Assembly (NCBI GenBank): GCA_963827165.1
Contig: CAWGZR010000001.1
Coordinates: 1-54,222 of the forward strand
Direction: 5' to 3'
Length of the DNA stretch: 54,222 nucleotides
From: Candidatus Bathyarchaeota archaeon
Lineage (GTDB): Archaea; Thermoproteota; Bathyarchaeia; Bathyarchaeales; Bathycorpusculaceae
Of the stretch, positions 1,285 through 54,222 are shown piece after piece (the first letter of the stretch is position 1; each line of letters starts with the position of its first letter). The notes below the pieces were generated by a model that had not been told where the DNA came from, did no database searches, and worked only from the letters and a program-made list of their open reading frames with translations. The position numbers and the translations under genes were made by a program.

Positions 1285-2007
1285 ATGGCTAATCCAGTCG
1301 ATGTTGAACTTGTTGCTCATGACGCAGACAAGGCCTCAAAAAGAGGAGACCTTGTCATCGTGATTGATGTGGTGAGAGCAACAACCAGCATCATAACCGC
1401 ACTATCTAATGAAGCTAAAAGTGTTATTCCTGTCCAAACAGTCAAAGAAGCAATGCAACTTCGCACAACGCACCCTGATTATTTACTTGCTGGGGAGCGA
1501 GAAGGAGTTAAACCAAAAGGTTTTGACCTTGACAATTCCCCTTTATCACTTACCAAAGAGAAGGTGGAAGGAAAAAACCTCATCATGAGCACTACAAATG
1601 GAACAAAAGCTTTGGTGAGGTCAAAGGGGTCCAAATGGGTTTTAGTGGGTGCTTTTGTGAATGCTGATGCTGTTGCAAAGAAGAGCATTGAGATTGCAAG
1701 TGAGAATAATGTGGGGATTTCTTTTGTGTTGGCTGGTCAAAAAAACCATTTTGCTTTAGAGGATTTCATCTGTGCTGGTGGAATCATTGATAGACTTCCA
1801 AAGGGAGTTATTGAGCTTTCAGATAAAGCGTTGGGTGCTTTACTTGCCTATAATAGTGCTAAACACAGTTTGCAAGAGAACATTCGCAAAAGCAAACATG
1901 CACAAGAACTGTTGAAAATTGGGTTTGGTAAGGACATAGAATTTGCGTGTCAAATAGACCTTTACAGCATAGTTCCACGTTATAAAAACGGAGTCACACA
2001 GTTTTAG
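1285..2007 (+). CDS. comB: 2-phosphosulfolactate phosphatase (ComB family)
   Basis: VIDVVRATTSI, LAGEREG, DNSPL, STTNGT, LEDFICAG motifs. Confidence 0.9.
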   Translation: MANPVDVELVAHDADKASKRGDLVIVIDVVRATTSIITALSNEAKSVIPVQTVKEAMQLRTTHPDYLLAGEREGVKPKGFDLDNSPLSLTKEKVEGKNLIMSTTNGTKALVRSKGSKWVLVGAFVNADAVAKKSIEIASENNVGISFVLAGQKNHFALEDFICAGGIIDRLPKGVIELSDKALGALLAYNSAKHSLQENIRKSKHAQELLKIGFGKDIEFACQIDLYSIVPRYKNGVTQF

Positions 2008-3616: not shown

Positions 3617-3630
3617 TCAAGAACTTGTCT

Positions 3631-3688
3631 GCTGGTCTAGGCTTGTAGACTTGGGTTCTATAGACTCCGGTTCAAATCCGGGCAGCCT
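3631..3688 (+). repeat. Degenerate tRNA-Pro(TGG) fragment, D-loop to acceptor strand, lacking the 5' acceptor strand
   Basis: GCTGGTCTAGGCTT GTAGA CT TGG GT TCTAT AGAC TCCGG TTCAAAT CCGGG CAGCCT: anticodon arm and T arm both pair. Confidence 0.8.
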
Positions 3689-3930
3689 AGTAAAGTCTCT
3701 AAACCGTTTCGGGTTCAAGTACCGTAGGCGCCTGACCTATTTGAGGTTCAAATTCTGGGCGACAAGCAACTTCAGGGATACCTGTCTTTTTCAGCATCTC
3801 AACTTGCTGAAAACACGCGCACCTTCAACTAAGAGTCTTTTGAGATGCACCTTTAGCTTGTTGTAAGAAAAACCTGCCAAAGCCTTTCCGCTCAGCTTTG
3901 TGCGAAAATGTTTCAACAGACGCATATTTT

Positions 3931-49338: not shown

Positions 49339-49453
49339 TGGCGCCGGGAGGGGGATTTGAACCCCCGCGGCCCCGAGAGGCCACAAGCTGCTTGGTGCTT
49401 GCCTTAGGCAAACATCTCCAGGCTTGCTCCCTGCCTGGCTAGGATACCCCGGC
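49339..49453 (-). tRNA. tRNA-Ser(GGA) with 26-nt canonical 37/38 intron (49390-49415) and encoded CCA
   Basis: GCCGGGG...CAAGC CT GGA G[intron]A GCTTG, long variable arm, GGTTCAAATCC, TCCCGGC G CCA; BHB motif with one C-A mismatch. Confidence 0.95.
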
Positions 49454-53374: not shown

Positions 53375-54120
53375 AACTATTACTAAGAAATTAAGCTAAT
53401 GCTAAAATGGCCATAGATCTTGTGACATAATCCATTTTAGAAATATGACTTTTAAGACTCCGAGGCTACTTTTGTATTTGAGGAGAAAGGAAAGCTTCAA
53501 AGAAAGGAGAAAGGGGAAAATCCCCCAATATTTTTAGTCCAAAAGTTTAAGCCAACTAAACGGTATCAGCTTAAACCACTCAACTGATAACGCCACCGGA
53601 TATGGCCTGCACGTTTTCTTTTGAAAAGAACTTATCTTTAGACATAAAAATCACATTTAAACAGTAAATATTTTGTTTCGATAAATAATATGCTTGAGTA
53701 TATGCATATGATAATAAGTTTTAATGCTGAGAGGTTAAATTTGAGAAAAGGGCATGAAGACTTGAAAGTTATGAGAAAACTGATTGCCGTCTCAGAAAAT
53801 AAAGAGTTTCATAGGTTTGGAATTTGGTTGTACCCGTGCATTCAACGCGCAATAATAGTTCTCTTCAATCGATTCCACCGCTCAAAAAATACTCGTCTAA
53901 AAAAGACAAAAAACAAGAAAAGTTACTATCGCCAATTAGGTAACCCACGCTCTCACGATGCTTGACGCTCCTTTTCAGTAACACTGTAGTCTTAGGCATC
54001 TTTCTTATGAAAAAAATGACTACAGAACGCTATATAGCGCAATATTCTGAAGTTCTTGCGCCTTTGAACGTTAGAGTTATAACGCCCGACAAACTTACAG
54101 AGGTGCTGGACGGGAAATCA

Positions 54121-54221
54121 GGGCGAGTAAAGAGAGAATAAAACTCTTTCTCGAAGCTCAGTACGGATAGAGCACCAGCCTCCTAAGTTGGGGGTCGAGG
54201 GTTCAAATCCCTCCCCGCCCG
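54121..54221 (+). tRNA. tRNA-Arg(CCT) with 26-nt non-canonical intron at position 9/10 (54130-54155)
   Basis: Spliced: GGGCGAG TA GCTC AGTACGGATA GAGC A CCAGC CT CCT AA GTTGG GGGTC GAGGG TTCAAAT CCCTC CCCGCCC G; complete BHB motif. Confidence 0.9.
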
Positions 54222-54222
54222 C

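Follow-up and report, generated by a model that had tools for sequence, protein, structure and literature searches.

A tRNA-Arg(CCT) gene of Bathyarchaeia with a bulge–helix–bulge intron at position 9/10 and an upstream copy of its acceptor strand

At the very end of a 54,222-nucleotide (nt) contig from a Candidatus Bathyarchaeota archaeon (GenBank GCA_963827165.1, contig CAWGZR010000001.1) lies a tRNA-Arg(CCT) gene whose nucleotides 9 and 10 are separated by a 26-nt insert. We hold with high confidence that this is a functional gene and that the insert is an intron removed by protein splicing. The intron belongs to a class that is already known, the non-canonical bulge–helix–bulge (BHB) introns of archaeal tRNA genes, while its splice motif takes up the 5′ strand of the acceptor stem and a second copy of that strand precedes the gene. 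On balance, and by a modest preference, we favour a model in which this leader copy acts as a stand-in for the acceptor 5′ strand, pairing with the 3′ strand so that the BHB motif would not be pulled apart. The stretch analysed, hereafter the window, is the whole of this contig, which is contig C1 of a 14-contig assembly (3.13 Mb, 44% G+C, 94.5% complete).

Anatomy and orthologues of the tRNA-Arg(CCT) gene

The gene and its parts are as follows.

54121-54221, plus strand: tRNA-Arg(CCT) gene, at the very end of contig C1, which stops at 54222
54121-54129, plus strand: 5′ exon, read directly, with the acceptor 5′ strand G1-G7 (GGGCGAG, 54121-54127) followed by U8 and A9 (54128-54129)
54121-54159, plus strand: splice motif of outer helix, bulge, central helix, bulge and inner stem (hBHBh′), present in its strict form
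54130-54155, plus strand: BHB intron of 26 nt at position 9/10, placed by direct reading, orthologue comparison and in-silico splicing
54156-54221, plus strand: 3′ exon, with the D arm, anticodon arm, variable loop, T arm, 3′ acceptor strand and G73

The 5′ exon has the same first 9 nt as intronless orthologues. In the 3′ exon the D arm begins GCTCAG, with G10-C13 (GCTC) at 54156-54159, the anticodon CCT (54182-84) sits in a 7-nt loop on a 5-base-pair (bp) stem, and the T arm (GAGGG/CCCTC) leads into the 3′ acceptor strand CCCGCCC (54214-20) and G73 (54221). An encoded CCA follows in orthologues; here the contig ends on its first C, base 54222. The acceptor stem has one A6.C67 mismatch, which is present in intronless orthologues too. 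Within the splice motif, the outer helix joins G1-G3 (54121-23) to C11-C13 (54157-59) through the pairs G1-C(54159), G2.U(54158) and G3-C(54157); the central helix of 4 bp pairs CGAG (54124-27) with CTCG (54150-53); the bulges, TAA (54128-30) on the 5′ side and AAG (54154-56) on the 3′ side, are 3 nt each and lie on opposite strands; and the inner stem of 6 bp pairs AGAGAG (54131-36) with CTCTTT (54144-49) in five Watson–Crick pairs and one G.U. The exons are collinear and contiguous, 26 nt apart, which sets the gene apart from split or permuted tRNA genes. The original prediction had described exons, helices, bulges and intron stem base by base, and direct reading confirmed every base that it named.

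In-silico splicing yields a 75-nt product that matches, letter for letter, four of the six intronless loci checked in the same genus (L005-L008; loci are labelled L and genomes G throughout), and a DNA search of relatives found the 3′ exon identical (100%) to intronless orthologues across 54156-54221. ARAGORN called tRNA-Arg(cct) in the three of these four loci on which it was run (L005, L007 and L008) and in the spliced window sequence; it missed the unspliced form, also when run with its intron option, and the match to the Rfam tRNA model covers 54153-54214 only (model positions 7-64, 42.6 bits). These results bear out the original call, in which a complete BHB intron interrupts a tRNA-Arg(CCT) at 9/10, since the splice product is that of natural intronless orthologues. 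They likewise bear out the cleavage that the call implied, in which loss of 54130-54155 leaves U8-A9-G10, the register being fixed by the bulges of orthologues. The accompanying warning that standard scanners may truncate the gene also proved apt, with Rfam recovering part of the gene and ARAGORN nothing.

Orthologues were gathered by a DNA search of 40 relatives together with pattern searches. Within the genus they are of three kinds, namely intronless genes (reading GGGCGAGTAGCTCAG...), genes with a 9/10 insert of different loop sequence and genes with a D-loop insert. A survey of orthologues across Bathyarchaeia, proposed with the original call, placed the 9/10 insert by pattern search in 26 of 401 genomes of the order, this one included, and in 11 of 117 genera, with the motif pairs kept through compensatory changes. 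This genome set aside, the insert was found in 18 of 247 genomes of family f1, 2 of 25 of family f6 and 5 of 60 of family f7, and in none of the other nine families sampled. A species-representative collection returned 29 pattern matches, of which 26 are titled Bathyarchaeota or Bathyarchaeia and one 'uncultured archaeon'; the remaining two, from bacteria (L068 and L077), were rejected as chance matches, having neither the CCT anticodon nor the leader motif described below.

Across 30 distinct orthologous 5′-exon/intron sequences, the outer three pairs and central pairs 1-3 are always formed, central pair 3 by compensatory exchange (A-U in 18, G-C in 12), and the six inner-stem pairs are formed in 25-30 of the 30 with several pair types; introns measure 26-30 nt. 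In a MAFFT alignment of 22 precursors, 94.7% of cells are paired and seven pairs have changed on both sides; none of 500 shuffles reached the observed pairing values, and slid controls were 41-61% paired. These orthologues also settle the register. RNAfold favours a hairpin whose outer helix counts 4 bp (G1-C4 with G10-C13) and whose bulge reads GAA, a fold that would shift the junction to 8/9, and the mature window sequence would be the same either way because an A stands on each side. The 5′ bulge of orthologues is invariably U-A-N (T-A-N in the gene), whereas the 3′ bulge is ATG, ACG, AGG or GCG in 18 of 30, so that an 8/9 junction would put U, C or G at position 9 in those 18 when intronless orthologues all read U8-A9. 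Only the 9/10 register, moreover, gives two 3-nt bulges 4 bp apart. The varied 3′ bulge and the constant U8-A9 of intronless genes thus place the junction at 9/10, and we give the 8/9 register almost no credence.

The enzymes that such an intron would call for are encoded in the genome, which has RtcB, RNase P RNA and two paralogues of the splicing endonuclease EndA (184 and 183 amino acids (aa), each with PF01974 and PF02778). One paralogue carries the motif EHAPY, whose His we take to be catalytic, and the other reads DTAPY and lacks that His. In excerpts of the published EndA classification, the alpha-beta type is the one that cuts non-canonical introns (PMC5829648). Two paralogues, one of them without the His, fit this type, and by analogy the pair is probably an alpha-beta heterotetramer.

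Could the window gene instead be a dead remnant, broken by insertion and yielding no functional tRNA, with AGG codons read by tRNA-Arg(UCU)? The locus is a rearrangement hot spot with flanks that differ widely between species, in two relatives the 9/10 gene stops short after about position 33 and another copy lies downstream, genome G281 has a degenerate second copy, the window's own genome has a partial copy on contig C11, and a tRNA-Arg(UCU) does exist. Against this, the exons are intact and identical to those of intronless genes, the strict motif is maintained with compensatory changes across 11 genera and three families, and copies that are truly degenerate look different, with G1 missing and the T loop altered. 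By ARAGORN and the Rfam tRNA model, the window gene is also the only intact Arg(CCT) gene found in the assembly, in which the other Arg tRNAs have TCG, CCG, GCG and TCT anticodons; a second intact copy elsewhere, together with the lack of a spliced product, was what the original prediction had named as grounds for abandoning it, and the copy at C11:709-778 is partial. We consider a remnant very improbable.

Several observations nonetheless weigh against a functional gene with a strict 9/10 motif. The minimum-energy fold of the window precursor departs from the strict BHB, keeping the D stem with a shifted inner stem. Of the 30 orthologous sequences, 18 have G-C at central pair 4 and the other 12, the G6 lineages, have a G.A mismatch, so the splice motif is relaxed there. 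The tRNA-Arg(UCU) might cover AGG codons, which weakens the argument from essentiality. In the search of RNA data, sequencing runs shared just 0.05-0.10 of words with the query, and in aligned contigs of four RNA libraries the A9-G10 joint across the intron was not seen, the joined form being indistinguishable there from transcripts of intronless relatives. The spliced junction expected in a relative with the 9/10 intron reads ...GGGCGGGUA|GCC.... The libraries X1 and X19 each gave one contig with a relative's unspliced 9/10-intron gene; these contigs reach beyond the predicted transcription start and so may be DNA or read-through.

The C11 copy (L127) is 70 nt long and 97% identical, with no 5′ exon and no 3′ acceptor end. 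It begins 8 nt before the intron's end, reaches to about position 68, has unrelated DNA on both sides and adjoins a PIN-domain gene. It is a fragment, not a rival gene, and resembles a scar, of att type or from recombination, left by a 9/10-intron gene.

Other tRNA genes of this genome also escape standard tools. About ten of the anticodons to be expected, among them Asp, His, Tyr, Lys-UUU, Glu-CUC and Gly-UCC, have no gene in the ARAGORN output for the 94.5%-complete assembly, and further tRNA genes with unusual introns are probably hidden in it. A stricter search for hidden tRNAs gained only two class II genes. A scan of the genome for tRNA 3′ ends with two upstream complements yielded no second example, though at its threshold the Arg gene, with one mismatch in each copy, went undetected as well. 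At C9:17186-17239 (plus strand, genome G000) a body resembling tRNA-Gly(CCC), matched by the Rfam model at positions 8-63 (28.2 bits), lacks an adjoining 5′ acceptor strand and has a possible 5′ strand about 100 nt upstream; it may be another case of a 5′-proximal intron or a pseudogene. Within the window, ARAGORN reports a 68-nt tRNA-Pro(tgg) at 3624-3691 (plus strand) that lies below the Rfam tRNA threshold and is probably a tRNA-like fragment, a normal tRNA-Pro(TGG) being present on contig C5. It also reports a tRNA-Ser(GGA) with a 26-nt intron at 49339-49453 (minus strand), which scores 39.3 bits with Rfam genome-wide and is unlisted in the window scan at the gathering threshold.

A leader copy of the acceptor strand

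Three further features lie directly upstream of the gene.

54067-54083, plus strand: promoter-like block AACGTTAGAGTTATAAC, with a TATA-like TTATAA at 54077-54082 (-44 to -39 from G1), conserved across three families
54108-54114, plus strand: GGACGGG, a second acceptor 5′ strand in the leader (the leader copy), which complements the 3′ strand CCCGCCC except at one A.C mismatch
54115-54120, plus strand: spacer AAATCA between the leader copy and G1, varying among orthologues in sequence and in length (about 3-8 nt)

All 9/10-intron genes have an upstream block in common (AACGTTAGRGTTATAAC). The leader copy, which lies 4-8 nt before G1 and has the sequence GGACGGG in this genus but GGGCGGG or GGCGGG outside it, accompanies 31 of 31 distinct archaeal 9/10-intron genes, 30 of them recognized by regular expression and the last, L070, having GGGTGGG, which pairs through G.U. 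None of 40 distinct genes without the 9/10 intron has it. Six of these 40 are D-loop-intron genes that keep the homologous promoter block and have, for example, GCTGTAATGGAATTT at the position of the motif; in one of the D-loop-intron genes, L014, three substitutions fall inside the 7 nt of the leader and create a stop codon while both flanks are unchanged. Since the motif persists in either of two frames relative to the upstream open reading frame (ORF), and also after a stop codon and in destroyed ORFs, the constraint lies at the nucleotide level. AT-only hexamers upstream of the genome's other tRNA genes peak at -42, so the promoter-like block sits where this genome's promoters sit. Transcription would accordingly be expected to start near 54106-54108 (-15 to -13), so that the leader copy would stand at the transcript's 5′ end.

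Folding models predict a partner for this leader copy. For the window precursor, the BHB alone was computed at -21.6 kcal/mol, the BHB with the leader helix at -30.7 kcal/mol and a cloverleaf with an intron hairpin at -30.8 kcal/mol; the minimum-energy fold, at -41.8 kcal/mol, contains the leader helix and the central helix. In models of 26 distinct precursors, the leader copy is the partner of the 3′ strand at a mean probability of 0.82 and the true strand at 0.00, whereas with the leader removed the true acceptor stem forms at 0.75 and the outer BHB helix at 0.00. RNAalifold, applied to 22 of the 26 (the multi-intron L027, L033, L034 and L037 were left out), returned the helix of leader and 3′ strand, the outer helix and the inner stem, with neither acceptor nor D stem. 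The original prediction had supposed that the BHB sequesters the whole 5′ acceptor strand, with which these folds are consistent, and the leader copy suggests how the precursor copes. Splicing would then come before acceptor-stem folding and RNase P processing.

We propose the following pathway. The transcript would start at or just before the leader copy (54108-54114), which would pair with the 3′ acceptor strand and leave the true 5′ strand to build the hBHBh′ motif. The splicing endonuclease would cut after the second base of each bulge, and RtcB would join A9 to G10. After splicing, the true 5′ strand would displace the leader copy, the tRNA would refold into its cloverleaf and RNase P would then remove the leader.

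A number of points count against this role for the leader. The transcription start was placed solely from the distance to the TATA-like element. The scrambled-leader control is weak, in that G-rich scrambles pair with the C-rich 3′ strand in other registers. The leader helix shows no covariation in the 22-row alignment, where the near-constant 3′ strand keeps five of the seven pairs from varying, which leaves conservation, association and thermodynamic models as its support; 15 of the 22 rows, those of this genus, have the A.C mismatch. The association was counted in genomes that are related to one another, not in independent ones, and in this genus the neighbouring ORF has final codons (L-D-G) that overlap the motif.

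Some of these points feed the alternative that the leader copy has no RNA role, being either the coding end of the neighbouring nuclease-like protein (a C terminus of L-D/G-G) or a relic of duplication or insertion, with the BHB forming unaided. In this genus the motif does read ctG GAC GGG within an ORF ending ...TEVLDGK, all carriers may share one ancestral cassette so that the perfect association would reflect inheritance, covariation in the helix is lacking, and a local BHB hairpin could form co-transcriptionally, before the 3′ strand exists. A coding or relic origin sits poorly, however, with the persistence of the motif where the ORF is destroyed (the window, L047, L058 and L033), where it follows a stop codon or lies in noncoding DNA (L035-L037, L055 and L063) and where it falls in another frame as GGG CGG G (L054, L057 and L058). 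The spacer beside the motif varies freely, and the six genes with the same promoter block and no 9/10 intron have lost the motif, L014 by its three substitutions. We judge a leader without an RNA role to be rather unlikely, though a serious contender, and keep our preference for the stand-in.

A nuclease-like neighbour and turnover of intron states

Immediately upstream, and running into the gene, the window carries what is left of a coding sequence.

53962-54141, plus strand: ORF of 59 codons, whose residues 19-58 are the 3′ remnant of a helix-turn-helix (HTH) plus PD-(D/E)xK-like gene; its frame runs on across the 5′ exon to a stop inside the intron

The window retains only the last 40 codons of this nuclease-like gene, and the remnant aligns with the family alignment A1 over 40 columns (hhalign probability 97.7%, E 1.4e-12). 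Full-length ORFs in L054 (277 aa) and L038 run straight into the tRNA. The N-terminal part of the protein is HTH-like. Its C-terminal domain shows FEYE, PDF and E-x-T-x-W without variation, yet where a PD-(D/E)xK nuclease usually has its lysine there is none. In Pfam the only match is Phage_endo_I (PF05367), below the cut-off (E 0.0013-0.0078), and the family profile finds T7 endonuclease I in the PDB (E 0.005). An AlphaFold (AF2) model has a mean predicted local distance difference test score of 68.5 and is confident only in the C-terminal domain (83-94). Foldseek matches to it are weak (best E 1.4e-3) and include Can2, Bax1, restriction enzymes, Vsr and I-Bth0305I as well as HTH proteins. 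From these comparisons a PD-(D/E)xK nuclease fold of the neighbouring protein is weakly supported.

The gene's distribution follows the intron closely. By tblastn it occurs in 22 loci, 21 of them with the 9/10 gene and one with a D-loop gene that has the same promoter, and in none of the other loci fetched; it was found in none of 151 sampled genomes of the order. In five chosen genomes it is intact in two and has stops in three, one of which also has a second, degenerate pair of nuclease-like gene and tRNA. Among 5.8 billion proteins the family accounts for 16 clusters; of 11 aligned members, at least 9 have encoded tails that extend into tRNA-Arg(CCT). Upstream conservation looks partly like coding. 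Coding constraint as the whole reason for that conservation was considered and rejected, since the leader motif survives frame change, stops and loss of the ORF.

Linkage to one target gene, patchy distribution and frequent decay are hallmarks of homing endonucleases, and the nuclease-like gene shows them. In the 'collaborative homing' of phages a free-standing homing endonuclease lies beside an intron, and I-Ssp6803I is a PD-(D/E)xK homing endonuclease of a tRNA group I intron. The present gene is like free-standing homing endonucleases in being a rare, often decayed nuclease-like gene linked, with patchy distribution, to the intron-bearing allele. It differs from phage and group I homing systems in that the intron here is protein-spliced, not self-splicing, and in that the nuclease-like gene is known from sequence and predicted structure. 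One could envisage the nuclease-like gene, promoter, leader strand, 5′ exon and 9/10 intron as one selfish cassette, in which tRNA-Arg(CCT) alleles lacking the intron would be cut by a free-standing homing-type nuclease and, during repair, would acquire both the intron and the leader strand that allows it to be spliced. We put this forward as a speculative and, for now, doubtful proposal; vertical descent with repeated loss may account for the pattern instead of homing spread.

Comparison of flanks found the three intron states in shared neighbourhoods and did not resolve the borders of a cassette. To judge from these loci, intron state turns over at one locus among congeneric species, which fits a selfish cassette and is no proof of it.

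Several loci add variety to this picture. L011-L019 and other congeners lack the 9/10 intron and have one in the D loop, about 40-70 nt long and placed after GGAT; six keep a 9/10-type promoter block. The tRNA-Arg(CCT) genes of L027 and L035-L037 have two introns (9/10 and 29/30), and those of L033, L034 and L076 (titled Ca. Bathyarchaeum tardum M17C-01, which exists as an enrichment culture), all in one family, have three (9/10, 29/30 and 37/38). In L123 (G281:C11, bases 1330-1580, minus strand) there is a second cassette, consisting of a nuclease-like ORF with a stop followed by a 9/10-intron Arg(CCT) gene; its tRNA has one acceptor-strand G missing and a TTTAAAT T loop, and it is a decaying duplicate. 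In L041 (G331) and L044 (G364), read from locus base 1501, the 9/10-intron gene breaks off after about position 33 (CCAGCCT|TAGGGCTTAG...); another copy, lacking the 9/10 intron, follows 5.8 kb downstream in the first and 2.6 kb downstream in the second. The inserted DNA in L041 opens with a 439-aa ORF that has no Pfam match, and the arrangement suggests an element bringing its own 5′ half of the tRNA.

Relation to known introns and implications

Excerpts of published work describe non-canonical BHB introns in Thermoproteales and other Crenarchaeota, Nanoarchaeota and Thaumarchaeota, with 3/4 as an extreme position (PMC4090602, PMC8450103). Like those, as far as the excerpts describe them, the window intron is short, protein-spliced and framed by an hBHBh′ motif at a position other than 37/38, and the two EndA paralogues recall organisms with the broad-specificity alpha-beta enzyme. 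As with known non-canonical introns, related species have an intron elsewhere in the same tRNA (D loop, 29/30 or 37/38). Measured against the same partial sources, the present case differs in its lineage, Bathyarchaeia, in a motif that uses the whole 5′ acceptor strand and in the accompanying leader copy. The text of one review names positions 3/4, 20/21, 22/23, 25/26, 29/30, 30/31, 45/46, 53/54, 56/57, 59/60 'etc.' (PMC4090602), and 9/10 is absent from the positions named in that open-ended list. Our literature search found nothing relevant on BHB introns at position 9 or on tRNA introns of Bathyarchaeota/Bathyarchaeia, and no description, in the papers searched, of a leader copy of the acceptor strand beside a BHB intron.

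Split and permuted tRNA genes, described in excerpts for Nanoarchaeum equitans, Caldivirga and Thermofilum (PMC3218864, PMC2237900), offer a second comparison. There too, as far as these excerpts go, transcribed sequence outside the mature tRNA gives the pairing that presents the BHB to EndA, and EndA processing must precede the final acceptor stem. The window gene is unlike them in having its exons on one transcript, and the extra sequence is proposed to hold the 3′ strand, not to form the BHB.

Non-canonical tRNA introns are known, and one more position is by itself a modest addition. For Bathyarchaeia the practical consequence is that standard scanners lose an essential-looking tRNA. The gene also makes testable the question of how an intron can be presented when its motif uses up the acceptor strand, to which the leader copy is a simple answer that mutation can probe. 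Tight linkage to a rare, decaying nuclease-like gene and turnover of intron states together provide a candidate mechanism for intron gain, and the cassette, if true, would be a first concrete mechanism for the gain and spread of protein-spliced BHB tRNA introns in archaea.

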